DNA of 64,000 bases, from contig CAIIXF020000001.1 of NCBI GenBank assembly GCA_903813345.2, forward strand, positions 13,268,001 through 13,332,000, in the 5' to 3' direction. Positions 1 through 57,200 of the stretch are shown in pieces (within the stretch, counting starts at the first letter, position 1; the number at the start of each line of letters is the position of its first letter). Both the position numbers and the translations under genes were made by a program. This DNA comes from Owenia fusiformis. Lineage: Eukaryota. The notes beneath the pieces were generated by a model that was not told the origin of the DNA, did not search any database, and saw only the letters and a program-made list of their open reading frames with translations.

Positions 1-1205
1 GCCTGTATGGGTGGAGTCAAACTAAACCTACTAAAGTAAGCACATTCGAGTATAGAAATATGACATACATAGCCTGTATGGGTGGAGTCAAACTAAACCT
101 ACATTAGAGTAAGTACATTAGAGTAAAGACAATATGACACACAGCCTGTATGGGTGGAGTCAAACTAACCCTACATTAGAGTAAGTACATTAGAGTTAAG
201 ACAATATGACACACATAGCCTGTATGGATGGAGTCAAACTAAACCTACTAAAGTAAGCACATTCGAGTATAGACAATATGACACACATAGCCTGTATGGG
301 TGGAGTCAAACTAAACCTACATTAGATTAAGTGCATTAGAGTATAGAAATATGACATACATAGCCTGTATGGGTGGAGTCAAACTAAACCTACTAAAGTA
401 AGCACATTCGAGTATAGACAATATGACACACATAGCCTGTATGGGTGGAGTCAAACTAAACCTACTTAAGTAAGCACACACGAGTATAGACAATATGACA
501 CACATAGCCTGTATGGGTGGAGTCAAACTAAACCTACATTAGATTAAGTGCATTAGAGTATAGAAATATGACATACATAGCCTGTATGGGTGGAGTCAAA
601 CTAAACCTACATTAGAGTAAGTACATTAGAGTAAAGACAATATGACACACAGCCTGTATGGGTGGAGTCAAACTAACCCTACATTAGAGTAAGTACATTA
701 GAGTATAGACAATATGACACACATAGCCTGTATGGGTGGAGTCAAACTAACCCTACATTAGAGTAAGTACATTAGAGTAAAGACAATATGACACACAGCC
801 TGTATGGGTGGAGTCAAACTAACCCTACATTAGAGTTAGTACATTAGAGTAAAGACAATATGACACACAGCCTGTATGGGTGGAGTCAAACTAAACCTAC
901 ATTAGAGTTAGTACATTAGAGTATAGAAATATGACATACATAGCCTGTATGGGTGGAGTCAAACTAAACCTACATTAGATTAAGTGCATTAGAGTATAGA
1001 AATATGACATACATAGCCTGTATGGGTGGAGTCAAACTAACCCTACATTAGAGTAAGTACATTAGAGTAAAGACAATATGACACACAGCCTGTATGGGTG
1101 GAGTCAAACTAACCCTACATTAGAGTAAGTACATTAGAGTAAAGACAATATGACACATAGCCTGTATGGGTGGAGTCAAACTAAACCTACATTAGAGTAA
1201 GTACA
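1..1205. repeat. Intronic minisatellite, ~72-bp unit, ~17 copies (runs off window start)
   Basis: Unit gcctgtatgggtggagtcaaactaaacctac...aatatgacacaca(ta) recurs at 1, 72, 144, 218, 290 and onward to ~1205, with a few alternating variants. Confidence 0.97.
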
Positions 1206-1332: not shown

Positions 1333-22419
<21,087 letters not shown>

Positions 22420-33200: not shown

Positions 33201-36200
33201 ACTGGATGAAACCAACTTTATATTTTTAGTTAGGGATCTCAATTAGTAAAAATATCATCACATTTTAGATCCTACGAAAAATTCTATTTGCACACAATGC
33301 TAGGAAATATGGAAAATTTCTTCTCGACAAACGACGCAACTGCTGAATCATTGAAAGTAAGTCTATATATTTGCCTGGAAATCATTTGTGACTACCTTTT
33401 ACCAGTGGGATTAATGGGGTCTAGGTGGTATAATAAGCTTACAAATGCATAAAGCTAAAGTTACAACTATTTTGAGTAAAGTATTTTTGATGTAGAAAAC
33501 TGGTAGCCATATTTTCCCATTTACTAGTATAAAACACTTTTTTTCGCGATACGGGGAAATGAAAATGCCTTAACATTTACCAAGAATGCCGAAAAACTAA
33601 TCAGTTCTAAACTTTTATAGGTAGAAACATCCCTGAGAATTCCAAATGAATCCCTCAAACGGTTTGGCTGGAAACCTGTAGACAAGCCTTGACAGACAAG
33701 ATTTTAGGACGGAAATCCAAAATGGCCGTCTTAACATTTATCCAGAATGTCGAAAAATTAATCAGTTCTAAACTTTATAGGTAGAAACATCCCTGAGAAT
33801 TTCAAATGAGTCCCTCAAACGGTTTGGCTGAAAACCTGTAGACAAGATTATTCGGGAGCCCCCCCCCCCCCGCCCAACCGCCCGCCCGCTCAACCGCCCG
33901 GCAAACTGATTACAATATAGCACCTTAGGGTATAAAACACTTTTTTCGCGATACGGGAAAATGAAAAAATCCATATTCCAGTTTTCCTCCATCAACAATA
34001 TTTCTCAAGTTGAAAGATATGTGTCAAGGAGTCATGAATATGAAAATATAGAGCACGAAGTGAGGTTGACAATTAAGGAATACATTTCTCGGCATCATGG
34101 CAATCAATAAGAATTTATGTTATTCAATTAGCTCTTTAAACTACTGCTTTTAGTAATGATCATTATAGCTAAAGATACAGATCTTCAAAGATATTCGTCA
34201 CAATGTCTTGGTTCTTTGCCCACTTTAAGATACTACTATTAAAACTTCTTATGATACTTAAGCAGCACTTTGATATTTAGGAAGGAATGCGTCATAGTCC
34301 ATGGAAAGTAATACAAGGACTTCTTTTTTGTTTTTGTTGAACATGAAGTAGCAGAAATATATTGTTACTAATAACCTAGCTCCACGCGTGAGCTCGTGGT
34401 TCGGAATTTGAAAATTTGTCCGCTTTGGGGATCAACCTATTTTTCGTTGTACTCAAGATATAGATTCTTGTATAAGTACCTGTGCAAGATGAGCTTTGAT
34501 AATTCTTCTTCATCGAACCGAAGAATAGACCATGCATATTGCACAAGTTCGAGTACAAGAAAGATGATCTCATATGACTCTGTATTATGCCATATTTTCA
34601 CATTTTTATTATAAAAACAAACTGTGAATTCTCCATAGTAATTTTACAATAAACAGCTTATCCCCATAGCGGACAAATCTTCCGATCCCATCTCGTTATT
34701 TTAGGCATTTGGAATGATTTGCGGGTTGTATTTGGCTGCAATATGAACAAAAGTTCGCTGGTGCATGCTATTTACCCGATGAATAAACTGATTTATATCT
34801 CGTAAATCAAAGTTCCAAAAACATATCTATCATTCTACAAAGACAATTTAAAAAAAATAATAGTTTCTTATGAAGATTTATGGCTCCTAATCTAGCTGCA
34901 TGCCACGATAAATGTTTCCAATGGGAAAACATATATGATATAGTGATAGAGTAATCGCATTTAACTTTCTTTGTACAGAGTCCTATCTACTCTATACCTG
35001 ATCAGGTATTTCATTTAAAAGTGCGTAGCGATCAAACCGATTTATCATGATTATTTAAATAGGAAAAAACTTGTTCACTGCAGTTGATTTTAATTAGGTT
35101 GTTCAAATGTATAATTTTATTTTATCGTTGGAAGACTTTGAATTTCAGTGACCATTTTTCAAGGTTTATTTCCTTAACATTAATGATTGGATCTTTCTTA
35201 GAGAAAAATAACCTACCCTTAAAATGAATGATGTAGCATGGACCCAAAAGTATGCAGAACATAAACGCAATGGTCGATGTAAGAAAATAAATGAAGCTTA
35301 CAGGTATATATCTTATATGAAATTGGTATTTAAAAATCACGATCAATCAAATCAATTTAGTTCTTAGATAATCTGGAGTTTACTTAAATATAAAACCTTC
35401 TAAATAGCTTAATATAACTGACATAAAATATGTCAGTGTCACCCTTGTCATTCTTCGTTTTGTTTGGGCCAGACTGCCATAGCCTCCCATGTTATAAACT
35501 TGCAATAGTCACTTAATTTAATGATTAATGAAAACGTGTTGGTTGAATCTGTCTTAACTTAGAATAGCATACCATTAGATGACCCTGCCAATAATTGATC
35601 ATGAAATGTTTGGTTGTCAAATTAATAAACCAAAGTTTTTAAGAATTGCTTCAAGCTTGCTTGAGATTTGGCCCATGTTTTTAAAACGTCATGGAAAATG
35701 ATTTTAAAAATGACGTAAATGTATAAATCAAAGTTATTGTTGTAGAAAACCTTTCAAATATGGAATTAAATAGAAAAACAGTTAGTTGTAAGAGGTTAAA
35801 AGTGCAAATCTCTTTGATATCTCAATGAAAAACGAGAATTAGCGAGATTTCAAAGCTATATGGAAACTCCTCGCAGCCTTTTCGAAACCTGACAAAATCA
35901 AATGTTGCATTTTGGGGTTTGATTTACATTTGATTTTGATTTAATCAATTGATGAATCTTCAAAACTGAAAAGCAATGGGGTGATACCCGTTTATTTAAT
36001 ACACTTCACACACTACATTCTAGAAATATTTCATTATGTTTACTGTACGAACTCTTTTTCAGGAATCGTTTCATAAATCCAATATAAGTCAGGGGATCAG
36101 AAATACAATTTGCAATCACAAGTTATGAATTACTTTATCTAGTTAATCAAAAACGTCAACTTAAGAATTCATAGCTCTTTCGGAAATTCCTGATTACTCT

Positions 36201-39200
36201 CGATACACAAATCCATTGCACTTTAAGACACCTTCTGGCTTCCCATCACCAAAATAAACATAAGAAAGTAGAATTCAATCATTTTAGTTTTACCCCGTGC
36301 CTAATTCAAATAAAAGCTTGTTAGCCTCATTCTAATCTCCTTAATCGGAACATTAAAAGAATGGTTCTCCAAAGAAATATGAGCCACTTTGGCCAATTTT
36401 GGCCTCATGAGATTATATTGTTTGATTACAACTGGGATAAAGAAAATTAACTTCATCCTAGATTCAACCGCGCGGTCTTAAATCTCCCGATTCGAAATAT
36501 GTACAAATGAAAATTCCCGAAGACCTATTGCGATATAAAAAGCCATCTTGTCTTAGACCCGCCAATGACGTTCAAAGAGTCTTCATACGAGTAATTATTA
36601 AATGATCTACAGGTTGTCAATTAAATCCCTTCCCCCATGCTACAGCTAAAACCTTAATATATGGTACCTAGTGTGATATACCATTGGAAAGATGATTCAG
36701 TTATGTTAACTTACATTGTACCAACTCTCAAGTATTCTGGATGAAATTCACCTATATTTTCATGATGTCTTTTATAGTTAGTGTACTCTCCTTAAGCAGC
36801 TTTCATTGCGTCAAAATGAGAAGGATATGAACTCAGAAATACGTCAAAAAGCTAACCCTTTTCGCATTCCACTTGTTACAAAAAGGTTTTCTCCACTTTC
36901 CTTGCACCTTTGTTTTCTACTTATCCAACCCTATCAAGAAATTGGTTTAATATTCACTGCCTTATACATAGATTGTCATTTTTAGGTCCTTTGACTTTTC
37001 TGATACTCGATTCTTAAAATCCTGCCAAATACGCCAAATCGCCATGTTTCTAGGTCTATGGTCACCTCAATTGATACGATGTAAAGTTTGTGACATTGAT
37101 TGACATGTATTAGATTTATGCCAATCAACGTAACTTTGGAAGACCTTTCCAATGATATGTCACACTTGGTACCATATATCTTGGTTTTGGCTGTAGAGGG
37201 GGGGGGGGCGGGACTTATTTGACACCCTGTATTATATTTTCAGGATGGTTCGCAGTGTATTCTGTATCACCTCCTCAAAGCAGGAAATTCGTCAAAGAAA
37301 TGGAACCTGAGTTGCAATGAGACGGAAGACTCCTTTTTGAAACACGACCACGAAGATTATCCATCAACGTTGACATCTGGGCAGAAAGTGTATGCTTATA
37401 TTACACCTATCATTATTTGTATCGGAGTTATAGGAAATCTGCTCTCAGTCAGAATCTTCTTGTCATGGAAAAAGCGTAAATTGCCTATCAACCATTACTT
37501 AACGGTACTTTCCGCATCAGATTTGATTGTCCTGCTCACATATGTTCTTCTGGATTGGATGAGAAAAGGACTTCCACATTTGCCCGGTCACGTTGTGCAC
37601 AACGTCATCGACACAGAAGGGGTTTGTCAGTTTTACTTATTAATCTCTTATGGCGCCCGATTTCTGTCCGTCTGGATCATAGTTAGTCTTACGATCGAAA
37701 GATACACGGTCATATGTTACCCGATTAGGAGTAGGATCTTCACTTCGAAAACTCTTAAGGTCGTTGCAACACTTGGTGCATTGTCCTTGATATTCTCCGT
37801 AACAAAAGCTTCCATTAGTGGAATACATGAAACGGTACCTGGTGGAGAAATATATAAATGTACCTACAAACCGGGTTATAAAGCTGGATCGTTTATACTG
37901 GACTATATTTTTGCCCTATTTACAACCTTGGTACCATTTTTTGTCATCGCGTGTCTAAATGTGATGATCATTAAGAATCTGAACCCATGTATTGGTAGGA
38001 ATACTTTACATGCTTCGACAAACAGAGTTTTCGGTTCGAGGCTACTCCGCCATCAAGTTGAATTAACAGTTACTTTGCTCACGATTTCAACTTCATTCGT
38101 ACTGCTCAACCTTCCTTACTTTGTCGCTTGGCTCACACAACATTCCATGCCTGAATATCGTAATATGGACACGTTTGCAGAGCTTATGAACGACCACCAA
38201 CAATTACAAGGATTTTTACTAATTTCGAAAACAATATATTACCTTAATTTCTGTTCTAACTTTTTCCTCTATTGCATCACTGGTTCTAATTACAGACGCG
38301 CATTGATTTCACTGTTCCAATGTCACCATGAGACGCATTTCATTCACGATCAGAGATCAACGACAGGAAGAGCTTTCTCAACACAAGTGACATCATTAAG
38401 TAGAGCGTCATTAACAAGCACGGTTTATTCGGGAACTTCCGTGAAAGGATCGTGCATGTATCTCACAGAGTTGAGGACTAATCGACGAATTATACAGACT
38501 ACCGCGGAGTGATATTCATGGTGATAATTGTGTGATTTGATTGATGTAAAAACCAGAACATGATTTCACAATATTTTCAGATGTTAAGTAAATAATACAG
38601 TTCTCAAATGCAGATCCACGAAACAAGTGTTTGTTTCGTGGATATTTCATAGTTTTTTCGATGTTAAGTTGTTCCTCAGACACTCTAAGTAACGGATCTG
38701 TAACGACAGCAAGTTGCTACTACGGCCCAGCTGTAGTGGCTTAAGCCTTTATAGCTCAGTTGGTAGAGCATCAGTCTTTGGATCCAGGGGTCCTAGGTTC
38801 GACTTTCTTTCAATTTCTTTTATCCGGCTTGTTACAATTTTGTAACAAACCTCCATTGTATTTCAATAACTGCTGTTTATGTTCATCAAGCTCTATGTAC
38901 TATTTAAAGGAATATTCCTTGCCAGACCCGTTCTCTCTTGATATGGTAGCTATAATCATATATATAGTTTCCATATTTAGCAAAACATGGGAAAATGTTT
39001 TAATGTGGTCAATATTGATCATTTAAACACCTAGTGCTTATTTCCAGTGAGCTGCCATCTTTTAAGATTTCTTGCAGGAAGTGATGTCATCAACTCTCAA
39101 CTTCTATAACCTTTCCCATAACAGTAGAGAAAAGTAGCACAAAATCACTACAGACAAGTGATCATTAATTTCTGTGCAAAAATATTTTCAGGGCTTGTCA

Positions 39201-42200
39201 ACTTAGAATAAAAGAAGAGATTTTCAGAAGGATTAAATAAGATACAAAGTTGAAAAAGAATATTTAGCTGGTTTTGTAATTCTTAATAGCTCCTCACCTA
39301 ATGCTATATGCAAAGTTGAGACTCGATGACACCACTTCCTGTTTGACATTTTAAAAGATGGCAGCTTACTGGAATTACCCAAATGCGAGTAGGTAGTTAC
39401 CAGTTTCACCACCAGGTGGCTGATTCGGGTCAATTAACATGGCAGGTATATAAGAAAGTTCCCTTAAACTTGAATATTATCAAATTAAGTGGCTCAATTT
39501 TCATATAACCCTTATGCGTCTGATACTTATACTAATGAAAATATGTCCAGTAAAGCAAAATATTATCTGTCCACTAAAAGAAAAGATATTTCATTTTTTG
39601 TGATTTTATAGCATGGGGTCTATGGGGAATCTCCCCGAGCTAGAAGTCACATTTTAAAAGAAAATTAATTTTTCAAAGTTGATAAGCACTTTTTAAAACC
39701 ATATTTCTACATGTAATTTTACATGTAGATTTTAAATATGATATTACTTTGACTGAATTTTGAATTTTTAATGATGTAAAGTAAGATTATTTCTACTCGC
39801 ATCTGGGTTATTGAGCATCACATTTCTAAGTGATCAAATATCAAAACATTTTTGCTAAACATGGCAAGCATATATATGGTTATAGCTACCATATGAGGAG
39901 AGAGATGGTTTGGCAAGGAATATTCCTTTAAGTGTAGTATTTATGCTTGGGTCACATTTGCTCTGATCCATCGGCCGGCGCCCGGCCGATTGACTGTTTT
40001 ATTCAATACTGTATTCAATTTTGAACATAATACTCAATCGCCCGGGCGCATTAGTAAAAATCGGAGCAAATGTGACCAAAGCATTACATATGCATGATCT
40101 ATTATTGTTAACATTACTCTCTTTGCTTAAATCGAACAGCAACATATATTTATGTGTATATGCATTTAAGTGTGTCTATTGAAAACTATTAATGTGGCAA
40201 CTGCTCAGCATTGCTGGCTGTTCATTGATTGTTTAAACATTACTTTTGTGAGTTTGGTATTCAACTTTTCATATAAATACCAGGTTTTTACGCAGATCCA
40301 GGCAGTGTTGCTGGGGGTTTCCTGACAAGGTATGGTGTAACTGTCATAGCCAAGGTCACGGCATGGATAGATTGTATGTTAGGAAAATTGATAAATTGCC
40401 TTCAAGACTTCAATGTTGGTCTAATCATGTGTGTTAAGGTGTTACGAGTGTTTATTAATTCAGTCACAGCCATTTACTTTGCTTTTTAAGCAATTAGTCG
40501 AGATGTTACCCATAATTTCTCAAATTGCCTTCATTTTCTTCATTTCCCCCTATCAAGGTAATTATCCCAAAGTCCCATCGAGTGCCTGGCCCATCAGTCT
40601 TCAAATTCTTCAATGCTTAGCTTCACACCCCTTTGAAACCATTCAGTCTTCATTTTCTTCATTTCCCCCTATCAAGGTAATTATCCCAAAGTCCCATCGA
40701 GTGCGTGCCTGACCCATCAGTCTTCAAATTCTTCAACACTAAGCTTCACTCCCCTTTGAAACCATTCAGTCTTCATTTTCTTCATTTCCCCCTATCAAGG
40801 TAATTATCCCAAAGTCCCATCGAGTGCCTGGGCCAACAGTCTTCAAATTCTTCAATGCTTAGCTTCACTCCCCTTTGAAACCATTCAGTCTTCATTTTCT
40901 TCATTTCCCCCTATCAAGGTAATTATTCCAAAGTCCAATCGAGTGCCTGGGCCAGCAGTCTTCAAATTCTTCACTCCCCTTTGAAACCATTCAGTCTTCA
41001 TTTTCTTCATTTCCCCTATCAAGGTAACTATTCAAAAGCCTCATCGAGTGCCTGGCCCATCAGTCTTCAGATTCTTCAATTATTCTTCAACCCTTAGCTT
41101 TATTCCCCTTTAACACCATTCGCCTTAGCACACAAACACCATCTACTAATTGTTATTTCATACATCTTCAGATACCAATAAATATACAGTATTACATTAT
41201 TTTGTACAGAACTTACTTCTCATGTTCACATTTTATGGGTTTGTTAGCTTGGAATCCCTACAACTACCCTTCATGTTTCAGTAAGACCCTAATACACCAT
41301 TTTGGTTTCAAAATAAACTACTCCCTCTTATACTGGCTTGCCGCGTCCATAATTAAAGGGAAAGTATTTTACACTATACTTAAAGTGCCTGATAAACTAT
41401 AAAATGCGCATGCGTCCAGGTGTTGATAAACTATAAATAGCGAAAACCCAGGGTTTGTCATCACAAGGTAAGCCAGGACGTGTTGAGCGAACATCTAGTG
41501 TTGATATTGAATTTACATGTAGCCAGATAAGTTTCCTTATTGAAATTACATATAGTTATTAGCAATACTTTGTAGGTGATAATTAATAAAATATGAGTAT
41601 ATATGAGAGAAATTGGCCATTTCGAACCTGTTGAAAGTTTGTGGCTCTCGGCTACACCGGGGAATTTACTTCCATGAGTACAGACACAAATGTGGGGCTC
41701 CCCAAAAGGTACGCGAGAATGTGACCTGGCATCAAATGTACGACTAAATGCTTCTATCGAGTAGATAAAAGAACGAATACGACAATAAGTTATTGCAAAC
41801 GACAATTCCGAGCATTCATCTCACTGAAGTATTTTGAAGTGAAGAAAATATGATTTTTGTTTTGAAACATGGATTCAGATGAACGTAACTTCATTCTGAC
41901 AACTAATCAAAACTGAACAAAATTGATTATACGTAACAGACGATTTATTGTTTTACAATGTTTTGATCGGCTAAACGAATGAAACCAAGAAATTATGACA
42001 TGTAAAATGGCAATTTTGAAATGTAAAATTTAAAAGTGACAAACACAACCTCCATATCCACTCTTTATGAGCCCTAATATGTACATGCAGCAGTGGTAGT
42101 GTACAGCTTATTATCACACTACTGGGCTTTGTATTCTAAAGCTTGTTGTTTTTAATAACACTGTTCACTCGACGTAAATGTTTTGTGTGTGCGCAGTCAA

Positions 42201-45200
42201 CGATAATCATTGTTTTATCCCGGTTATATGACCTCGGCAATTATAACAAAACGGTACTAAACGAAAAAACGCAAATAAGAGAAAGCTTTCACACACATAT
42301 AAAAAATGAACTAGTCTAATCCGCCAGTATAAACTTAGTCCAACAACATTAGACCTAGCCCGGGCCTCGTTTCTTATCTGACATGTGTTATGGCCCGGCT
42401 AGGTCTAACCTCCATGACCATTTTGCCTTTGATGCGTTAATTTAATCGTTCAGCAGGTTTCGACAAGCGGAACAAATTAAACCCTGAAAACATGGCAATA
42501 TTACACAAAGAATGTGATTCAAACATGCATACATACCTTATAAACACATACACCCCGTCCCGTATCCCCCTTAGACCCTATTGATGCATAATTACGAAAA
42601 TATTGGAGACAGGTTTGGAATATGACGAAAATGTCGGTCAGTTTCGGTAACATCGAAATTGCAAATCGTTTCAGGAATTAACCGTCATCACGGCACTGCA
42701 TTAACGAACAGCGGGTTTGCAATTAATAACTATTTTGCGTGTATACACGCGCTATATAAATTAATCAAAGATACCTGTTATCCTCAAAATTGATCTTTTT
42801 ATCCCGAGTAATCGCGATAATAATTATCAATCTATTTGACAACAATTTCGTTTCGCTGGTAGTTTAATTTTACGATCCGGGACACTCAGACGAACAGACA
42901 CAATGACTGACATGCGGAAATGTCACTTTAGAGATTGGTAAGTGTAGCCTCATTTTACTCGTATAAATGAACATTTAACACAAAAATATTGTGTTAAATC
43001 GCTTGATGTTATGTGTTTTTATATTATTGTCAAGTATCAGTTGCACGTTATCGCGGAAAAATGGTTTCGATGGATTCAGAACTTGCATCAAAGGAAAGAA
43101 TAGTAAGGAGGTTAAACTCAATAATGGCCCCAAGAAAATTCCTAATAATAAAGAACGCCGTTATTGAGTTTAACGACGTTGAACTAGTATAAACTCTGTT
43201 ATATACGTAGCCAGGTCGGGCGCACACTTTAAGAAATATAGACCGAAGAGCAGGGCTACTAGTTTCGAATACACCCCGCAGGTCTAGGCACAAACGTTTT
43301 CTGTTCGAAAGCTTTTGTGCCTAGACCTAAGGGGTGTATTCGAAACTAGTAACCCCGCTCTGAGGCCTATATTACGATTCGAACATGAAAGCTCACCAGA
43401 ATATTGCAAAATCGTCAATTTCGATGCTCATTTCCACTTTTTTCATTTCTACTTCCGGTTGAGCGTTTGGCTGTTCTAATTTGTTTACTTACCTCCTGAC
43501 CCCGACTTAAGTTTTTTAATGACATTTCGGCCTATTTTAGTGGTTTCACGCATACCTACCACATTGATTATTATTGAAATTATTGGGATTACAGTTTACA
43601 AATGCTCCGACGGAAAATTTTGGCTCCGGACAATTTCTCCCTGCCATTTTGAATTTTGCAGACGAGAGGGGGATGCGAAAAGAACGGAACGGCCTAAACT
43701 GATCGAGTGCACTGAACGAAACACTTAGTACACAGCCGGGGAATTGATCTCGAATATAACCCAGCTGAAGTATTGACTTTGTTCACAGTTTATAGAAGTC
43801 ATGAATACAGTTATGTTCGAATCGTTAGTTAGTCATTCCCCCTGGGTGCCCTCGGGTCATTACATTGGTGTCAGATGTGGGATCAAAGCATTGGTTGTAT
43901 CCTTTGCGCCGTGTGTGTGGAAGTCACTGCTAGGGAAAGCAGGGCTGACCACGAGGGGTTGTCCTTTCAAAGGGGGAGATAGTGTAACGACCCTGGAGGC
44001 CGTTTCTCGAAAGTTTCGTTATTAACGATTTTCCGTTTCTCGAAAGTTAACGATTCGTGATGACGTCATGGTTTTTTCGTTATCCATGATTGATTTTACG
44101 AGTGCGAATGGGAATCTCCTTATTCCATTAACGATGCGGTGTCCATAGAAACGAATCCACGATTCGTTGATAAAGATAAGTTTCGAGAAACGGCCTTCGG
44201 GATAGCAAGTTGCTACTACGGCCAAAATGTAGTGGCTTACGCATTTATAGCTCAGTTGGTAAAGCATCACTGGATCCAAGGGTACTAGATTCGATTCCCA
44301 CACGGGGCATTGAATTTAGCACACTTTTAATTTCTTTGTTCGACTTGTTACACTAAACTCGTTAGTAAGCCATTCCCTTGGGTCCCCAACTTCAACTTCG
44401 AACAATTGCGACCATTGATGTGTGATATTATTCTGTCCATTAGACCCTTAATACAATGTATTAACCATACCTCTGCGACCCAAACCCTTGAGTTCAATTC
44501 CCATATCAATGACACCGTTTGAACAGTTTCTTAGTTCGTAGAATTTATTTGCAGAGTTAATTAATCAGCACACGGTGGCGCAAAATCAATTATTTAACAA
44601 GGTTTATACGTCAGTTCATCCTGATTAAGTGAAGGAATTTCTAAATTATTACGATACATGAGACGATCATTGCTGTTTATCAAGAGCATATTCGCGACAC
44701 GTCCAAATGAAGAAGATGGGATTTAATATTTAACTTTAATTTTTATGCATCAAAATCATTGGTTTAACAAAAAGTGTCAACAGGGGTGGCAGCATCTTTG
44801 GTCCAAGGGTATTTCAATTCTTTCTATATAGCTGCTACATCAGTGACGCCAGATCTTGAAGGATGGGGTGGCAGCTCTGAGACCATGGGATCATTGCTAT
44901 GTGGGCCTTTTAAATACTGAACGATGTATTTGCAAATGCTAAATGGGCACCATGGACAAGCTTTAGGATCTCGAGGGATCCGAGATTGAGATTTCATGTC
45001 AAACATTCTAATGAAGACATGATCCCTTGAGACATGTACAATAATGAGGAACAGGAATAGTTCCACTATAAGTCTGACTTGCTACACTTATTACTATAAT
45101 AAGGTATGGCTGGTATTACCACTTAGATCTTTAGAAGAATGATATGTTCTTCATCTTCTATCCTTTCCGAACCATGATCTAAAGGGGATACATACCAACA

Positions 45201-48200
45201 AAAAATATGTTAGCGTTTATTCTACATGACCCCATGATGAAAAATTAAAATAGAAGAATCACAACGTTGCTATTTGAGATGAGATCAATGAAGCAGAAAG
45301 GCTAATTGTAACACCTTATCAGTAATAGACAAGACTCACCAAGAGATTCATCAGGATAATAGGCATGAGGATCATGAAGATTATACACATGAGGGTTGAC
45401 ACTCGCTCTAAGTGAGTACTCCCTTGGTCACCATTGACGAGTGGTATGAGGAATGTATCCGTGTAGCTGACGGCATTCAGCATCATGATAAATGTGGATA
45501 CAATGGACAGCTCTGGGGTTCTATATGCGTCACTCTGAAAATCAAAATTGTCTGATAGATAATTTCGAGGAGGTTACATTTTTATCTAATCTTGTAAACA
45601 AATACGGATGCTTTAACCTTGACCAGTTGATCACAATCATTCGTTTGGGCGGAGCTTCATTTTGAAATGATTTGCGTTTCTAAAAGAATACTCGTGGTAA
45701 TCAGAATCAGTTATGAACAGATCAAAGGGGCAAGGTGACATTATTACAAATAATCATTTTCCAATTGGGAATCGGTTGGCTAAACAAATTACAATCATCA
45801 TAAATAACTTGTTGTTGTTTATTGGTATAATTTTGTACAAACTTTCCACCCAACTGCATACCATGTTGATACGTTCAAGAAAATAATGGTTCAACGTGAT
45901 ATTTACAGGGTTTGGCTAAATTAATTGAAGTGAGTACCCATTAGACTATTAATGGTCTCAGTTTTATCTGATATCAACACATTTACCTATTAAACCCAAT
46001 CAAGCCACGCGTCATCACAGACTACTGAACAATTATGGAACTTTGTATCGTTCCAATGGTGAACGTCGTCAATTAATGAGGTGGATTAGATTCTGAGAGG
46101 ACTAATGATGAAACATTGCAAACTAACCTTACACAAGCCTTTTGATAATGCGATCAATGCATTCTCCGATCAGTTGTTTCTTTTAATCAGGACAGTCTGT
46201 CCAACAAGTTATTAGTCATTTTCCAAGACTTATAACGGAAACAATATTTAAAATTGATACGATAAACAGATAAATCAAATGACATAAGCAAAGTCAAATT
46301 GGATTAAAAAAACGCTAGAACATATCAATAAAATATAAGAATGGCATATTTGTTTGATAAATCGACGTAATCCATTCAAGGATGACAGTAAATATGAAGT
46401 GGTAAATTATGATTATCAAGATAAAGAATTGCTGTGTTCGATCAGATTTATACTTTTCTTTTACGTTATCTTGAAATAGTGATAAACATGAACCAAATAA
46501 TCTCATACAGGGCTCGAAAGCAAACCCTCCTAAGCTGAGGCCCGGGTATACATAGTCTTGCTTAAAAGACCCTGTACTCCTCCCCCCCTTTATCCTTCTC
46601 TCTAGGGTGAAGGTGACGGGGGGGGGGTGGATACAGTCTTTGAGCAAGACTAGGGTATACAGTAAAATAAAGTTTCTTGTGTTTTACATCTATCTTGTTT
46701 TGTTACATCTTATTCACTCATTTGCATGAGTAAGTAGCTAAGATAGTACATTACCAACATAAGTGGGGATTTTTAAATATTTTATAACGTATACCAAGGC
46801 CTCAGCTCCTAAGACAACAAACCGATTATACGCTTGTAAACTGCACAGGATGAGATGAACCTAAATATGATCTAGTAAATGAGGACGATCGTTTAGGGTA
46901 TGCCTTTTTGGCACTTAATGCTTCATATTGTCCAATGTGTTGGTAGCGGCACCCATACCACCATATCTTTAATCTAGCTTGAGCTTGAGTCTCGGAACAG
47001 ATACATGCGACACTTTATAAAAGATGGTATAAAAGTTGGCGGGCAGATCGTTTTCGATCAGTACAGGATGCATATGGTCAAAATATTCATTATATGAAAA
47101 ATCCATTGCCCACATTTGATTAAACGATTCATGGCATGAACTAATTGCGTGAGTCAATTGTTAAATTTTAGGATCGACAGTCATATATTCCAGCTTTTTT
47201 GATTAGGTTGAGAATAATTAGGTTAGCATAAGTCAATAGGGTGAAACAATCCATCTAAAAACGCAAGATGTGATGCATAATTGATTACGGACGATAGGAT
47301 CAAAGAATGGGAGAGGAAACGTATTTTGGAATTGCATCTCGAAGAACATCCATTCAACCTCTTCAGCTCTTGTTTCGTGTCAAATCTAATTGGCACATAG
47401 CTCAGCCGAAATGAGATACCCATTACCGAAAACGGCAAATTGAATTGTTTTATCACACTCAGATGGTGATAATAAAAGGGACGTTGCCTCGAATCATTGA
47501 GAAAACATCTTACTTAAGATTAAAGAACACTCATGATCTCAGACCTCAAACACATTCCCCTCCATACGTTTGGCAACCTTAATTCCCTCATTGAACTACG
47601 TGTTAAAGCCTCTTTATGTTTGAATTTTCATCTACTTAGCAGCGATGAAAATACTTTTGAAAAAAGTGGAAATGTAACTTAACTTAATTTTCAATGCCTC
47701 TAAATTTTCCCAATTTCTTTTCTTAATTACAATAGGTCGAAAATTGATGACTTTGATGAATTTTTGAAAATTGACATTCCCATGTAAACCAATGAAAAAT
47801 GGTGGGTTCGGGGCAAATCAGATTTCTAGATATCTATTGAGCTTCACCAAAAAATATTTTTATATAGAAATTGAATTGTCTACCTTTTTTTAAAGTTACA
47901 GAGCTTCAAAGTCATTTTTGAAAATCATTTTTCGCCTCCTGTATTATTTCAATAGGAGAGGTTTCTTGAAAAATAATTTTGACTTGGGAGAGCTATAACT
48001 TTGTTGAACGTGAATAAATATCATTTTTTGTTATTTTTTGCGAGAACTCGGATAGATGGATATTCTGTCATATGACTTGCGACAAACCTATCAGTTCCCA
48101 TTGGTTTGCATGAACATGTCGATTTTCAAAACTTCATCAGATTTATCATCAATATCCGACCTTTTGATTATCGTTGAAATAAAATGAGAAAAATTGGAGG

Positions 48201-51200
48201 TATTCGAAATGATGTCAATTTATATTTCAAGCCCTAAAAGTAGACTTTTCTTACAGATTATGTAAATAAAAATAGATATAGACAGGCTTTAGCACATGTT
48301 ATCCAATGGGGGGTTAGGGTAGTCAAACTTATGGAGGGGAGTGTAAATTGTTTGACCATGTATATTGCTCTATCTTATTGCTCTGTCTATTTTTCAGAGA
48401 ATTCATAATCTCAATTCCATATTTGAGCCTGGCCATAGGAAAACCGGTCTTATCACAAAAATGAAAAGTGTGCTTCAGAGCCAAAAATGTGCCCAAGATT
48501 AAGAGAAAATGTGCTGAATTCAAATCCGACTTTTTGGTCTATATATGCAAGGAAAAATTGGTAAGACATAAGCCATGGCTCATTTGAAAGGTCTCTTTGT
48601 GCTTTCTAAGATAAACAAAAAATCAGAATATTGAAATCTGTGATTAGACCCCTTTTCCCGTGTCCTGGCTCATTTCTATTTAGAAAATAAAGAATCGTTT
48701 TTATTCTTTACGGTACGCTTTATACATCTCCACTCTTCAGTTTCTACACTCTCACACATTTAGTAGATATTTATTAGCCATCGATTATCATAACAATTAC
48801 AAACAAGCATTTCTTCCCTAGTTGTCCCCTGTCACCAAATAAAACCATAGGCGATGATTAAGTTAACCTAATGTTATTGTATTAATTCAAACTATAATAG
48901 TGGGTTCTCAGATAACAAAATGATAAAAGAAATGCTGATTTACATAAGATTTCACTTTGCTTTATATGGGTGAATACTTTGGGATATACAGGTACCTTTA
49001 AATCGTTCAATTAAATTGTTTAAATGATTAACAAATCAAACAGCGGGATTAAGGGCTTTTGAAAATTAAGTTGTTTTCATGTCATTATTAATTGCATTTT
49101 CAGAAGATAGACTAACATATGATGAATATTCCAAGAAGTGCTAAGCGCTCTCTTTGGAATCGAAGACATGTTTATGTTCCTATAAGTTCTTCAAAAGACA
49201 AAGTCGATATCATCATAAAACATATTTTGGTTTCAGAGGGGAATTTTGCGTTTATTTCTAGAAAATAATGAAATGGGTCTTAGAAGTCCTTATCCGCTCA
49301 TTCTGGAACAAGGGGCTTTTGTGGCAATCCTATAAATTAATTTCATCATCCGTCTCTGAAGTTGCATTTTAGTAGTAGATACTCGGTTAATAGTATGCGA
49401 GTTTAAGAGATGTCAGACGTCTCTTGCTTAGCACCTTTAATTTATTAGGGTTATTCTCCTCTTGAAACATATATCTGAAGGAAATAGTCGAAGAATTGAA
49501 CTCCTTTAATATTCAAAATGACCTTCATGTTTGCCCACATTGCGTTGCAGCCTCGTTTTGGATAGGCGTACGTCCTCAAACGCTTCACCTCTATCCACCG
49601 TGTATTTAAAATTTGTGGTTTTTCTTACACTGAGATATTTATTCAAGATATTTTGTGATTTTACTTTTTTAAGTTGAAATACCTGATTTGAAAGAAGCAT
49701 ATAGAATGTCATCCCAAATGCAACGATCACAGTGAAGAAAACAACCAACACTTTGACCAACGTCTTCAGAATTTCCAAGAACATCACAACGTATATCCCA
49801 ATAACATCTAATCTAAAAATGTAAAAAAATGTTTCAGCCTGGCCTGTTACAGGTTGACGGAACTGCGTCTGATCCATAACTCATCTTTTAATACTTCAGA
49901 AGATATTACCCCGTGATTACTGTATTCATCAAATATGTCATTTTGTCAGATAAACCAAAATATAATTCCAATCATACTGAAATATGCTGATTAATTTCAG
50001 TGATTTATTGATTCATTCAATATTATCTAAATCTACGAAATTATAAAACCATCATCATTTCATTAAATTTCATAACCTCATAAATCATATGATGTCTTTG
50101 CGATCGGCTGATTTTAAAGCGGTTTCGGTTCAGATTTTGTGTCATTCACACCGTTCCTCGAATCGTAATTTATTAGGTAACAGAAATGATGGATTAAATT
50201 TCTTTTGTAACCTTTCTCTGGAGGCCATCCCAGTCCAAATAAATAACATTGCGTAATAATGTAATATTGAAATAATGACGAGGTTAATAAGTAATCATAC
50301 GATTCAGAGCACAATGTTTTACTAACCTTACGAAAAATAGCATAAAGTTAATCCATGCCAGACAGACGGCTATTGGGGCACACTGCCATTGTACAATACT
50401 TGAAAAACCGAACAGGAAGGGCACGGTGAACGCAAGCGATGCCCCATATATCATCCACTCCATAATGTTGATGGGATCGAGGAAATATCTAAATTTCTTA
50501 AATATGAGAATTGTATTATATAAAGGAGGGTTATGTACTGGGAGGTTTTGGATATGGGGTTTATCCAGAGGGAGATATGCATATCTACCTGAGGGACCGT
50601 AGGGACCGAAGGTAGATGTGCATATCTCACGAGGGATGAACCCTATATCCAAACCGACCGTACATAACTGCTTTATCATATACCAAGTTAAGTTTTCAGG
50701 GGCATATGGCCATTTCAATAGTACAAGGTGTAAAAATAAACAAATCATTCATATGTAAAGTCATTTTACTGCATTACCGGAAGCGGGAAGATATGCACCA
50801 GATGCGGGAAGATATGCACCGAAGCGGGAGATATGGCGGGAGATATGGAGGTTCTGGATATGGAAACCTCAAAATCAGGATACGGGATATATCTTACCAA
50901 CATATGTCCCTAAAACTATACTTGACATAGGATAAAAAGAACTACATGGGGAAAAGAAATTCAGTACTTCTCATCTATTAATGCAAGTCCTTAGACTGAT
51001 CAGTTCTGGTCTCAATTTATTTTCAATGAACAAACTGACGTCATGTGCTGTAGTATAATGTGAGATAATCAGCTTGGTCAATTTAATACAGACGATTGCA
51101 CATATTTTAATTTGTATATTTTGAAAAAAAAATAGTAAGGTTACTACTGATTTTTAGCGAAAAAAAATTATGAAATGTATAGCGTTTTCCTTACCCTACG

Positions 51201-54200
51201 AGGCCCTTTGTTACATTTTAGGAATAAATTAAGTGGAGCCTAGAATTTTACAGAAGAATTTAGCAAAAACGAAATACAGTAGTGTTGTACCTGATGGAAG
51301 AGCTGAAAAAGTTCTTTTCCAATGTTTATCAAACAGAACAGAATTATCTCAAGAGCTAAAATCATGTCCACAGAGCCCATCTGTAAAATATCATAAAAGC
51401 ATGTAGTGTGTTTCACGGTCGGTTTGCATTTGCCATTAAAGTAGTCTGTTATTTATTTGAAATCGCATGTGGAACGTGACTTCTTATCTCAAGACACATC
51501 AATTTGGAGTATGGGCAATCTGCGCCAGATTCGTTTTAAAGTTCGTGTTTGCTCATGCTCTAAAAATGAAACTTCAATATTTACGAGTTTTTATTAATCT
51601 CGATAAATGAGAAAACAGAATTCTCATTAATATCTAGTAAGATGTCATTTTTGAATCATTACAGTCATTTAATCGTCTTAAAAGTATTTAATATCGATGA
51701 AAATGTCATAACTGTGCTTTCGAAGTGCTACTACAAGATCAAAAGTAAAGCCACAACGGAGCACCGGAACACCCCCACAGTGGCCCTGGTGTGTATAGTT
51801 TCTCACATGTGCAATACCTAAACCATAGTCCGTTGTCACATCTTACCGTGTGTCGTTGTCTTTGTTAATTATTTGAAATTCAGCTCTGATTTTACCGATG
51901 CCAGGGTGTTCCATGTAAACTTTGAACGTTGTAAATTCGAGGAAGAAAAAACAATGTCTTCCTGGCGCTCAATCGAAACACCCAGTAACTACACTCTGAC
52001 AAACTCACCTCAACTTGGGGATTTGACCTAATCGGAGTTGTCGCCGTGTATGTTTCATTAATTTTCTTTTCGGTATTCTCGAACCCACCATGTTCGAGTG
52101 GGTTTCTCAAACTTACAAAGGCAGTAAGTGAAACCAGGAACAGTAAATAGATAACCATGTTCATTATATGTAGTTTCATACCAAATGTTGCCCTATAAAA
52201 GTACAGTGTAATTATTTCCAACATGGAATGGTCGTGATTTATCTAGGTGGGATGAAAAGATAAACAAGATGACAAATGAGAAAACCCAACTTACCATTTA
52301 TACTTCAGGTACTGTAGACATAGCGGATGAGACAGACAATCGATTCTTCCGTGTTCTATCATTACCTATTGTAAAACGAGTAAGAAGGAACAATCATTCA
52401 CACAAAAGAACAGATATTGCAATAATTGGAAAATATTGTTCACGACCCATTTTTAAACTCCTTATAGATAGGACATGCTGTCTTAAAGTACTAGCACGTT
52501 TGCATAAACCGGTATTTACGTCTTACATTTGAAAAACACAAGAAAGTCAGAAAACAATAAGGCTGGGAGAAATTGTCACGGTCTCCAGAGGTTACAGAAA
52601 TAATCGGTCATTATTTTTGTTAAAAAACTTACATGCAATGGAGATGTTGACTTCATTATTTTGTTCTGATTAGAATCGCTCGGGAGAAAATTCTTTATGA
52701 TGTAAGTAAAGTCGTATTCTATCTGAAAAATCATATCAAAGATACTTAAACATGTCCGATTCAGATATGTTAAATGTTTACTTTGATACCGAGCGGGACG
52801 TTTTCCAGGAATGGCGATCGACAAGATTAATCGAAAATCTTCTAAAATGGCCGCAAGAAAACAAGATGACCATCCAAAAGTTAATTTCCTGTAAAACGTA
52901 GTACCCTTAACATGTATATGATAAGGTATTAACATGATAAATATCCCCACCTGCCATTTGTTACAGACGCCGAACACCGAACACGAACCGCCGCCACGAA
53001 AAAGTTGGAGGCTATAATGATATGTCAACCAAGATGCAGCTGTAGAATTTGATTTGATTTGACAAAACAGCGGTACCCCAAAACGATCACGATCACCCGC
53101 CATCATGAATAGTAGAATATTATAAGGCTTACATTATAGAAGATATAACGAGCATCAAAATGCAAACTAGACACTCGCATGCATCCCCGTAGCCAAAGTG
53201 GGGGTACAGGGGGTGTAGGCGAACTCCCCCTCCTGGCCAAAAATCCTTACAAAACCATGCATTTTTGAACTATTCTGAGCATTTTCAAATGATTCTTGGC
53301 CATAATTGTCAAATGTGAACCATTGACAAAAGCTGGCTACGGGCCTAACATGTATACTTACAGATGATCCATTGTTTTCCGATAACACTATACACCTATC
53401 CATGGCAACCTACAATCACAAATGTACATGTAAAATATTTCTAAAGTTAATGTACAGTGAATGTAGGGATAATTATTCTTAGGTATGAATATATTTTGCG
53501 CGTATTTCAACGGCAGTCCACAAGGGACCATTGTGGATTTATGTGTCGGTTAGTCAATATAGAAGTTTACCATACATGCTTTTGGGAGGTTTCTTATTAG
53601 TCCAAGAAACGGGGCGTTAAATATTGCCGATGATTGATTCAGTGCATCTCTGAACCTATAAAATCAAAAGTCATTTTTCATGTGGATGATTAAAAGTTCG
53701 TCTTCATTTACTCCAGATATGATGTGCCAATAAACTACAAGCATGTATTCAGTTTTAATTTAGCCATGTCATTTCGAATTCGTATGTACAATACCCTTCG
53801 CACCATCTATATAGTGTTTTAAACATAAGAATCATATGAAACGGTATAAGAGGGGAAAACATTGTTCTGTTGTCAAAATGCAATTTCTTATAACAGAGTT
53901 TACAAAGTACAGTAGATAACCTTTCCGACGATAGCACTGCAATAGCACTTTCTTCCATGCTGTTTACAATTAGGATATCAAAGAACGTTTGATTATTTAA
54001 ATCCTTTGTTATCATCGCATCCATCGAAAGAAGTGTTACCAAGACTTCCCCATGCCCCTTTTCTGCCGCCAAGTGTAACGGTGTTTTCTGCAAAATAAGA
54101 CGACGTAGTCTCTGACTTTGAGAAAGAAGCTGACATGGTTTATGTTGCCATCAGTGTTTTATGTTGTATAAAATGAGATGTATTTTCAACGAAATCAGGA

Positions 54201-57200
54201 CATTTTAAGGAACGCAGTCTCCTATTATAAGATATCCTTAATTGAGGATTGAAGCCACGGAAGGAAAGGAGAAATGATAATGGACTCATTTTTGAACAAT
54301 TTTGCTTGTTTGAAATTCTCCAATCCTCATTTTGATCCTCAATTAGACTGATGTCTATCAAGTATCAATAGTTGCTTTAAAATTTTGTTTTAGGAACACC
54401 AATTTTTAAAAAAATGTGATTAAGAGATAACAAATAAAAAGAAAGAAAAGAGAAACACTTTGCAACAATTAATATTATGAAATACAATACTAGTACTGAT
54501 AAATAGATTTTGATCATTTTCAGACACTATGCTTACCGACTCATTATTGGTCGCATTTATCATATTAGTGTGGGTAGACAAGAGCTGTCGTAAAACGTCC
54601 ATGTTGCCGTCAGCAGCACATGCAATATGAAGAGGGTTATTTCCCCTGTGGTCCCTGAAACAAGCAATTTAAATAAATTATAGTTATAATCGTTTTAACG
54701 GACGGAAAATGGCCATATACAACTATCTCGATGAGCGCCTCAATTTGGTATTTTCTAGGGCAAGCAGCTATTGACTGTGGATGAGACAGTTTGAATAATT
54801 ACTATAGTAACAGATCGAGGAATGGAAAATTGATCCCAGTTATAAATTCCAGGACAAAGTTTCGCATGCATTGAAAAGAGAGTGATCATCTACCTTGACA
54901 TGCGTGCTCCTCTTTGTAATAAAAGTCGGACGACTTCAGACTGACCATTTGCACACGCATGGTGAAGAGGACTGTATCCATTGGAGTCAACTTCGTTAAT
55001 GATCTGCGAGCCTATCTCACTATCAAGGTAATGTTTGCATGTATTCAACCGTCCATAACTGAAAAACAATAAATCGTTTGTGCAAGATAAGTGCAGCCAA
55101 GGTTAAAGAAAATGATTCAGTGTAGAAAGTGGTATACAGGGGTAATGACATGGGCTCAGCACATGTACATCTGCTGAAACCAAAAGTTATTTGAAAAAGA
55201 GGTATTCTTACCGAGCTGCAAAGTGTAAAGGTGTCTCCCTTTTGACAGTCTTCCCATGAGGATCAGCACCATGATTGAGTAAAGTTAACATCGCTTTAAT
55301 GTTGCCATACTTCGAAGCCACATGTAGGGGTGTATGACCATCGTTGTCCAGAGAGTGTAACAAATCAGATAGTTTACTTCTCTAGAAGAAAGAAATTCAT
55401 GTGTAGTCAAAGTCATCTTGCAGAAATGAAAAATGAAAAACAATTGATAGCCAAATAAGAAAACTGAGTAATTATAGCGCATTCATGGATGGTGCAAAGT
55501 ATGTCTGAATTATGGGAATATGCCTATCATCAGATATGCATTATAATGAACGTAAAGATGTCTACCTCGGAAATCGGTATATGTTCCGCAATCATCTCAA
55601 TATCAGCTCCCACCGACACGGCTGCATGTATAAAGGTTCTCCCTTGTTCATCTTGACATGTTATGTCTGCTTTTAATTGAATGAGACGTCTGGCAACCAT
55701 TGACGAGCCACGGGTTGCAGCTAAGATCAGCGGTGTCATAGAGCGTCCATCTCTGGCGTTTACGTCAGTGCCCTGTGTGCCACCAAACATTAAAAATGGT
55801 CAGGGGCCAGCGTTTAGTCGGGGGGGGGGGGTGTGATCGACAATCTTTTCGATTTTCTGTCAAGGGGTGCGATTGTGCATAAACAAGCCAAAAATAAGAT
55901 TAATTTTGATTTTTACAAAAATTGATGCAACTTCCTTCAAAATTGAGCTAGAAGCTTCAAATAAAAAGCATCACATCCCCCCTCTGGCTACGTCTATGAT
56001 GGTGATATCAACAAATTTAGATTAATAGAGGACACCTATAGTGCTTAGTTGTGATTTAGTTTACTTCTGGGAATACAGGGTGACCAAAAAAGTGAACCGT
56101 TGGTGTTTTTTTTCAACTTCCTCATAAATGCCATGATCAGGTTCATTAATGTACATTAGTCAATGCATGACATCATGTAAAAGTGTGAAATGTCGATCTT
56201 CTTCCATTTTTATTTGATGACGATTTCTGGAAATGCCCCTGGCACTAAAACCAAACTAAGATTCTGCGCTTAATATCATTGATCACTCTGATACATTCCT
56301 CAACCGTGATAGCTCTTATTCTAGCTTTAGTTACTCATTTTAGCTCCCTTATGGTAACAGGATTGTTTTCATACACATTATCAAATTTGGATGGTTTAAG
56401 TCAGGGCAGCGAGGGGCCCATATATTGGGACAACGCCTATTGTTCAGTCAAACTCCAAACCTTGCACAGTGTAGCCCCATCTTGCTGGAACCACGGCTCA
56501 TGCCTTAGCAATGTTCCCTCATCTGTCAAGAGGCTGCCCAGAATTACTACTACGTATTGTTCAGTGTTCACTGTGACAGCTTTTCCTGTGTCGTCTTCAA
56601 AGAAGTAAGGCCCAATTTTGCCGAGCCTTGAGAAATAAACCCAAGCTGTACAATTTGTAAATTGTAATGGCCTTTCAGGCACTGGGTCTGAGGGAGCTGT
56701 ACCACAAAAAAACATTATTCTTTGAATTGACATTTCCCTTTATAAGAAAATGGGCTTCAGAAAACCATGGATCATTGCGCGCAGAATCCAAGTTTTTTTG
56801 TGCAAGGGAGCACATTTGGAGCATGTCCTTAAATAGCCATAAAATAAAAACGGAAGGAGATTGACATTTTACTATAATGTCATGCATTGACTAATATACA
56901 TTTGTACCGAAAATGAACCTGTTCCTGGCATTTATGTGGAAGTAAAAGGAAAAATCGACGGTCCACTTTTTTTCTGGTCACTCTGTACTATAGTTTTTGG
57001 CTTTATTAGGCATCAATGAGCTGACTTTATGAGGCATACAATAGGGAGTTGAATGACCATGGTAAAACGACACGATTTTAAGTTACCACTGATGTAGTTT
57101 ACAGGAAGTGACAAAACAATTGAGGAGGACAATATTAATCCATGTGATTACTAATAAAATAAAAAACGTATAGACCTGTTCAATTAGGTACGCCACTGTG

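Follow-up and report, generated by a model that had tools for sequence, protein, structure and literature searches.

A TRPA1-clade channel gene of Owenia fusiformis with Asn-Ala at the Gly-Asp position of the pore filter

The TRPA1-like gene and its pore exon

The window analyzed here is a 64,000-nucleotide stretch of the Owenia fusiformis genome (assembly GCA_903813345.2, contig CAIIXF020000001.1, positions 13,268,001 to 13,332,000 of the forward strand). Its minus strand carries a gene for a TRPA1-like cation channel, in which the residues aligned with human Gly914-Asp915, the upper constriction of the TRPA1 pore, are Asn-Ala. An earlier inspection of the letters alone (the sequence-only reading) had proposed a TRPA1-like channel with a non-canonical selectivity filter, encoded by an otherwise intact gene. 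The peptide of the pore exon is 100% identical to a part of the 1191-amino-acid "unnamed protein product [Owenia fusiformis]" (hereafter P0002; 1 match among 18 candidates), and the P0002 gene lies on a 62.2-Mb record. By tblastn and exact mapping, residues 94-1191 were placed in 24 ordered, in-frame minus-strand segments of 100% identity, spanning 60149 to 27208. For residues 1-93 of the deposited protein, these methods gave no match within the window. This 5' end lies outside the window or is possibly mis-annotated; residues 1-77 have a predicted local distance difference test (pLDDT) score below 50 in the structural model. The introns flanking the pore exon, of 4 kb and 15 kb, are both entirely within the window.

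Pfam analysis of P0002 identified ankyrin repeats (Ank_2, expectation value (E) 7e-79 over 7 stretches; Ank, E 1.8e-67) and the Ion_trans domain (35.1 bits, cut-off 25). A phmmer search against solved structures matched 7ykr_A (E 7e-185) and human TRPA1 chains (about 1e-175) over residues 102-1160. By sequence, P0002 is thus a TRPA1-clade gene, intact across the part that lies in the window. Both proposals of the sequence-only reading, the TRPA1-like identity and, for the window content, the intactness of the remaining gene, are upheld by these results.

The pore exon, translated from 45534 to 45340 on the minus strand, encodes SDAYRTPELSIVSTFIMMLNAVSYTDTFLIPLVNGDQGSTHLERVSTLMCIIFMILMPIILMNLL. 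It is flanked by clean splice sites, with the acceptor ...ttttcag and the donor gtgagt. Re-translation gave exactly the peptide written earlier, and both filter codons were found where they had been placed: AAT at 45477-45475 encodes Asn979, and GCC at 45474-45472 encodes Ala980. The match to the human filter is also gapless, as had been claimed. The phmmer alignment to 9m8n_A, a solved human chain with native numbering, pairs human L913-G914-D915-I916-N917-Y918-R919-E920 with P0002 L978-N979-A980-V981-S982-Y983-T984-D985. The acidic filter residue that follows Leu-Gly in the canonical channel is absent from L978-N979-A980. The further claim that both codons differ at several bases holds for the Asn codon, which is 2 bases from any Gly codon, but not for the Ala codon, which is 1 base from GAC (Asp). 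Restoration of Gly-Asp would require at least 3 base changes in all. An N-glycosylation sequon at Asn979 was considered and rejected; N-A-V does not form a sequon.

Public sequencing runs were aligned over window positions 30000-49999. Record 15 of run X7 (885 letters, depth 10.9) reads 49683-49812 in its letters 1-130 and 45340-45534 in its letters 131-325, on the minus strand, with 1 differing letter in the 195 of the pore exon. The run is of RNA by guess only; the contig is taken as a processed transcript because the upstream exon is spliced directly to the pore exon. A DNA-like contig, record 7 of run X1, covers 44801-45779 and thus the pore exon. The proposed substitution is therefore supported by a spliced and a DNA-like contig, apart from the one X7 mismatch, which is unplaced. 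An alternative Gly-Asp pore exon, a concern raised by the sequence-only reading itself, was searched for with a hidden Markov model of the pore exon built from 119 other homologues and run on all 2904 six-frame open reading frames (ORFs) of at least 15 amino acids in the window. Only the known exon was matched (E 1.6e-19; next 0.69), and an alternative or duplicated Gly-Asp pore exon was rejected within the window. Searched by tblastn with the canonical Owenia paralogue (P0003), the window yielded the P0002 exons alone, and no tandem paralogue.

Rarity of the filter, constraint elsewhere and other features of the window

The alignment was built from 120 proteins, those listed of 129 transmembrane-region matches among 3595 candidates, with P0002 included. 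To these were added the 120 listed of 661 matches from a profile search for longer sequences, and 38 matches from a pore-exon search of 1.84 billion representatives; the query exon and the unrelated P0151 were dropped. The pooled set contains 247 proteins with a residue in the D915 column, 211 of at least 490 amino acids and 36 shorter. In the best 120 of the 129 matches, the D915 column holds 116 Glu, 3 Asp, and 1 Ala, and the G914 column holds 99 Gly, 20 gaps (molluscan MML-ELDY forms), and 1 Asn. Across the 211 longer homologues, the D915 column holds 152 Glu, 58 Asp, and 1 Ala, which is P0002, and the G914 column holds 185 Gly, 25 gaps, and 1 Asn. The acid is likewise absent from P0002 alone among the 120 listed of the 661 longer-protein matches. 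From L913 to E920, a single acidic residue is present in P0002, against 2 or 3 in each of the 119 other homologues; the position of human N917 is Asp in 98 of the 120, and Ser in P0002. No orthologue was found among the matches listed, the nearest non-self matches having 46% identity across the transmembrane region and 52% across the pore exon.

The pore-loop comparison thus makes P0002 the sole non-acidic sequence among the 211 long homologues, and the unusual filter proposed earlier is borne out for full-length proteins. It is not unique beyond them: the D915 column is Glu or Asp in 26 of the 36 shorter homologues and Ser, Thr, or Asn in the other 10. In the molluscan TRPA1-like proteins (P0006-P0011, P0013, P0014, and others; 20/120 and 25/211), the filter is one residue shorter (MML-ELDY) and has no Gly914 equivalent. 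By alignment, this form is a second natural filter variant in the TRPA1 family.

The 10 neutral-filter fragments (P0122, P0126, P0129, P0133, P0137, P0139, P0143, P0146, P0150, and P0160) come from other genomes and are 57-279 amino acids long, many being single exons read into the intron. P0139 is KAI0228466.1, "TRPA1 [Lamellibrachia satsuma]", with the motif G-N-I-N-Y-V-D; the motif of the fragments is mostly G-x-I-E/D-Y-x-D-x-W. They resemble P0002 in the neutral residue at D915 (Ser, Thr, or Asn; Ala in P0002) and in an Asp at the E920 position (10/10). All 11 neutral-D915 sequences therefore carry this Asp, although the sample is biased, since the query that retrieved the 10 fragments contains it. 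An Asp or Glu two positions past D915 is present in 9 of the 10 fragments and absent from P0139 and P0002, so that P0139 shares with P0002 the lack of an acid at the N917 position. The fragments differ from P0002 in keeping the Gly (9/10), where P0002 has Asn, and in a Trp at the F922 position (8/10), where P0002 has Phe; they are 34-45% identical to the P0002 exon. These fragments may mark an undescribed TRPA1-like subfamily.

A phylogenetic tree was reconstructed from 38 of the 120 proteins, picked for taxonomic spread (82 omitted), on 1124 columns under LG+G4 with a quick search. P0002 fell within the bilaterian TRPA1 clade (34 rows; Shimodaira-Hasegawa approximate likelihood ratio test (SH-aLRT) 100), apart from Trichoplax, Ptychodera P0112, and Actinia. 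It was basal in this clade, its exact placement not being resolved by the LG+G4 tree. P0003, with a branch of 0.55, grouped with molluscan TRPA1 (SH-aLRT 94). In a tree of 262 C-terminal columns, P0002 joined a weak group (SH-aLRT 80) with Lineus, Watersipora, P0139, P0143, and P0122. In approximately unbiased (AU) tests, neither a clade of P0002, P0139, and P0143 (p-AU 0.266) nor a pairing of P0002 with P0003 (p 0.364) was rejected. The neutral filter may have had one origin in a spiralian subfamily or may have arisen independently in Owenia.

Outside the filter, P0002 keeps 103 of the 114 columns conserved at 93% or more. Of its 11 deviations, 10 are conservative changes (for instance Val to Ile and Leu to Met), and the sole radical one is E980A. 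The four residues of the cytoplasmic Ca2+ site are all kept (Table 1). The S6 gate (human I957, V961) is I1025 and I1029 in P0002, the change of Val to Ile being found in 7 of the 120 homologues as well. The S6/TRP junction reads LMNLLIGLAIGDI, in agreement with the motif LMNLLIGLAVGDI. Human N954, D963, K710, and C641 are matched by N1022, D1031, K767, and Cys704, respectively. Two of the electrophile-sensing cysteines are not kept: Ala684 stands at the Cys621 position, and Cys665 aligns with a gap. The loss of the Cys621 equivalent is not rare, since this column is Cys in 88 of the 120. The whole pore loop of P0002 has 3 acidic residues, and 41 of the 120 homologues have 3 or fewer. This pattern of conservation fits purifying selection with a specific filter change better than a decaying copy. 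By its sequence, P0002 is filed as a TRPA1-clade paralogue by descent, and not as a canonical TRPA1 pore.

The AlphaFold model, built with 52 aligned sequences, has a mean pLDDT of 81. Paired helices are predicted from residue 84 to about 666, with pLDDT near 90. They are followed by a pore helix (966-977), a 5-residue loop L-N-A-V-S, a second pore helix (983-992), S6 (1002-1029), and a TRP-like helix (1031-1057); pLDDT is 73-83 near the filter. The ten best Foldseek matches of the model are all TRPA1, including 7ykr_A (E 1e-52) and human chains with template modelling scores (TM-scores) by target of 0.69-0.76.

The exons of the gene are collected in Table 1. The 15-kb intron after the pore exon (30391-45339) is rich in high-copy repeats, with a summed contig depth of about 1e5 at 39338-40004. 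At 38671-43339, RNA reads are found on both strands, and the sequence is presumably that of transposable elements. Nested antisense within the same intron is an uninterrupted ORF of 429 amino acids (37223-38512, plus strand), which encodes a rhodopsin-family G protein-coupled receptor (Pfam 7tm_1, E 8.8e-19). The receptor region 37337-38670 has a strand-specific depth of 3-8 in two raw RNA sequencing (RNA-seq) runs, and is spanned by a single-copy DNA contig. An ORF at 3419-3934 (plus strand) contains the C-terminal domain of glycosyl hydrolase family 31 (E 6.8e-8), and probably belongs, as an exon, to a neighbouring alpha-glucosidase-like gene. At the window start (107-1119, minus strand), four ORFs (107-175, 615-683, 761-829, and 1051-1119) have identical profile scores, which suggests a repeated unit.

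Table 1. Coding segments of the Owenia TRPA1-like gene and key codons of its pore exon (positions in the window)
Feature	Position	Strand	Basis
In-window part of the gene, 24 coding segments, residues 94-1191	27208..60149	-	tblastn, exact in-frame mapping
16 exons: ankyrin-repeat domain, linker, S1; residues 94-829, including Ala684 (Cys621 position) and Cys704 (Cys641 position)	52009..60149	-	mapping, Pfam, alignment
2 exons, residues 830-917, with Ca2+-site E852, Q855, N869, E872 (human E788, Q791, N805, E808)	50323..51380	-	mapping, alignment
Upstream exon, residues ~916-959, S5; spliced straight to the pore exon in the cDNA-like contig	49683..49814	-	mapping, X7 record 15
Pore exon, residues 960-1024: pore helix 1, L978-N979-A980, pore helix 2, most of S6	45340..45534	-	sequence, ag/gt flanks, spliced contig, model helices
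Asn979 and Ala980 codons (human Gly914/Asp915)	45472..45477	-	sequence, phmmer alignment
Asp985 codon GAT (human Glu920), sole acid remaining in the L913..E920 stretch	45457..45459	-	sequence, alignment
Downstream exon, residues 1025-1048: S6 end, IGLAIGDIEEV, start of TRP-like helix; 15-kb intron to the pore exon	30319..30390	-	mapping
Last 3 coding exons, residues 1047-1191: end of TRP-like helix, C-terminal helices, stop	27208..28455	-	mapping

Predicted permeation and rival explanations

TRPA1 signalling proceeds largely through the Ca2+ that the channel admits; permeating Ca2+ potentiates and then desensitises TRPA1. In human TRPA1, the upper gate consists of Asp915 and the Gly914 carbonyl, and Ca2+ preference is absent in Asp915Ala and Asp915Asn (bioRxiv 10.1101/2019.12.26.888982). 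The D915A and D915N channels have greatly reduced inward current, with outward rectification even without divalents; in D915A, the unitary current is also smaller, larger organic cations can permeate, there is little block by Ba2+, and binding is weakened 200-fold for ruthenium red and >10-fold for Gd3+ (PMC5100928). In mouse D918A, Ca2+ permeability is lowered (Wang et al. 2008, cited through PMC5100928 and bioRxiv 10.1101/2019.12.26.888982). The background given by the sequence-only reading, that G914-D915 form the upper constriction and that the Asp-to-Ala change lowers Ca2+ permeability, thus agrees with these sources.

The product of the gene is probably a functional TRPA1-clade cation channel subunit with altered permeation, a divergent paralogue whose canonical counterpart lies elsewhere on the same chromosome-scale record; this reading is given a rough probability of 0.55. 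The scaffold is kept, including the ankyrin domain, S1-S6, two pore helices, the S6 gate, the cytoplasmic Ca2+ site, and the TRP-like helix. In place of the four-acid ring of the upper constriction, present in every other full-length relative, stands Asn-Ala. Judging from the human D915A/D915N and mouse D918A mutants, the homotetramer would still conduct monovalent cations. Its Ca2+ preference would be lost or weak, its inward current would be reduced, with outward rectification and lower unitary conductance, and its block by divalent and polyvalent cations would be poor. The retained Asp985, at the Glu920 position, would still draw cations into the outer vestibule. The Ca2+ site, defined in TRPA1 as E788/Q791/N805/E808 (bioRxiv 10.1101/2019.12.26.888982), is intact, so cytosolic Ca2+ could still modulate the channel, which resembles TRPM4/5 logic. 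P0002 is probably not gated by electrophiles in the manner of human TRPA1, because the Cys621 and Cys665 equivalents are missing; human Cys621Ser is insensitive to iodoacetamide (bioRxiv 10.1101/2019.12.26.888982).

Several points weigh against this reading. The precedent consists of single mutants of mammalian channels, and in P0002 the Gly and the N917-position residue are changed too, so the local filter geometry may differ; the Gly914 equivalent is not indispensable, since the molluscan relatives lack it. TRPM2 and TRPM8 pass Ca2+. A neutral filter residue alone does not exclude Ca2+ permeation, since these two channels share the FGQ filter with the Ca2+-impermeant TRPM4 (PMC5877947). The end branch of P0002 in the LG+G4 tree is 1.09, against a median of 0.5, and its 11 deviations in the 114 conserved columns compare with a median of 1 and with 3 in P0003; both could mean relaxed constraint. 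Among the 120, a higher number of deviations is seen only in the two Trichoplax proteins, Actinia, and, as the one bilaterian protein, Ptychodera P0112. The single X7 mismatch leaves an Ala-to-Asp allele formally possible; one letter change cannot give Gly-Asp, so the X7 contig excludes Gly-Asp and allows Ala to Asp at most. Finally, in a sample of about 6% of the reads of two raw RNA-seq runs (X12 and X13), the depth over 45341-46007 is 0, which is uninformative on expression.

Alternatively, P0002 might be a modulatory subunit, co-assembling with P0003 (L-G-E) and not working alone. One to three neutral positions in the acidic ring would then tune the Ca2+ entry and rectification of the heteromer. 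The canonical paralogue shares the 62.2-Mb record with P0002, and the two have 46% identity across the transmembrane region. Conservation extends to the parts relevant to assembly (S5-S6, the TRP-like helix, and the C-terminal helices), which are helical in the model. Tetramers of mixed TRPA1 subunits are on record: a truncated human mutant co-assembles with the wild type (PMC10199097). However, co-expression and co-assembly of P0002 and P0003 are hypothetical here; the two proteins are only 37% identical overall, and neither the trees nor the AU tests resolve their kinship. A partner subunit would not be required, because human D915A homomers conduct. Such a modulatory role is considered unlikely.

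The filter charge might instead have been relocated outward to Asp985 (the Glu920 position) and Asp995, with near-normal permeation and a mild change. This account draws on the Asp at the E920 position in 11/11 neutral-D915 sequences, compared with an acid in 29 of the 120 homologues generally (17 Asp and 12 Glu), although the retrieval bias noted above applies to this co-occurrence. It also draws on the 3 acids of the whole pore loop, which are within the family range, and on human TRPA1, where E920 gathers permeant ions and contributes strongly to the pore potential (PMC5100928). Yet human TRPA1 has both D915 and E920, and removal of D915 alone abolishes Ca2+ preference and most inward current in the mutants described above. 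Such a relocation with near-normal permeation is considered unlikely.

A decaying or non-conducting duplicate under relaxed selection, with a frame not yet disrupted, is a very unlikely explanation. The long end branch, the excess of deviations, the loss of the Cys621 and Cys665 equivalents, and the lack of an orthologue among the matches listed would fit it. Against it stand the 24 intact in-window exons with consistent frames, the spliced transcript-like contig, the conservative nature of 10/11 deviations, and the retained Ca2+ site, gate, and S6/TRP motifs. Other long-branched paralogues of the same clade retain the acidic filter residue, so fast evolution alone does not remove it. A sequencing, assembly, or annotation artefact is effectively excluded: the Ala codon is a single base from Asp and the one differing X7 letter might lie in it, but a return to Gly-Asp would take 3 changes or more, the splice sites of the exon are clean, and it has no second copy in the window. 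A contig of a separate run carries the exon in the spliced form of the model, differing at 1 of 195 bases, and the DNA-like contig of a third run spans it.

The Asp or Glu of the upper constriction is kept in 210 of the 211 full-length relatives examined, from placozoans to mammals, and an apparently maintained channel without this acid would be a natural experiment on the need for the acidic ring. It could show whether the charge at the E920 position substitutes for the ring, and whether TRPA channels can be pure depolarisers. The annelid and molluscan "TRPA1-like" paralogues are also not interchangeable, as they differ at the electrophile-sensing cysteines and at the pore, where the Gly is missing in molluscs and the acid in some annelid forms. 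A broader proposal is tentative and rather doubtful: spiralians, annelids at least, might hold an undescribed TRPA1-like branch without the acidic filter ring but with the Ca2+ site kept, consisting of Ca2+-modulated, largely Ca2+-impermeant depolarising channels. If true, this branch would be an independently evolved TRPA counterpart of TRPM4/TRPM5, and its most extreme member would be the Owenia gene, which lacks the Gly as well as any acid at positions 915 and 917. Lophotrochozoan TRPA1-like paralogues are already on record, for example eight in abalone (PMC12980990); that survey contains neither "selectivity filter" nor "pore". A literature search, with subscription-only papers and supplements outside its coverage, found nothing on Owenia TRPA, and no neutral filter described for annelid or lophotrochozoan TRPA1.

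Comparison with known channels

P0002 and human TRPA1 (6v9v, 9m8n, 3j9p, and others) are homologous over the full length, with the ankyrin domain, six transmembrane helices, and two pore helices in common. They differ in the filter, which is L-G-D in human TRPA1 and L-N-A in P0002. In addition, N917 is replaced by Ser and E924 by Ile, and of the two cysteines Cys621 is replaced by Ala and Cys665 falls in a gap. Drosophila melanogaster TRPA1 (7ykr/7yks) is the best match of P0002 in both sequence (E 7e-185) and structure (E 1e-52), but its filter reads L-G-E, and it keeps a Cys at the Cys621 position. P0003, of 1183 amino acids, shares the architecture of P0002. It differs in having L-G-E-I-D and a Cys at the Cys621 position, and it is located outside the window.

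The human D915A/D915N and mouse D918A mutants carry an uncharged Ala or Asn in the upper constriction, and they provide the sole functional model at hand for P0002. They are laboratory single changes in a mammalian background that keeps Gly914, whereas in P0002 both filter residues and the residue two positions on are naturally changed. Moreover, the natural Asn979 sits at the Gly914 position and not at Asp915, which corresponds to A980.

TRPM4 and TRPM5 are Ca2+-activated, monovalent-selective TRP channels. They have a neutral FGQ filter (PMC5877947), and an S2-S3 Ca2+ site is common to TRPA1, TRPM4, and TRPM8. They belong to another TRP subfamily without an ankyrin domain, and the resemblance to P0002 would be in a possible working principle only. 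Taken together, the sequence comparisons place P0002 as a natural variant of a well-known kind of channel, unique among the full-length proteins examined and with weaker parallels in other annelid-type genomes.

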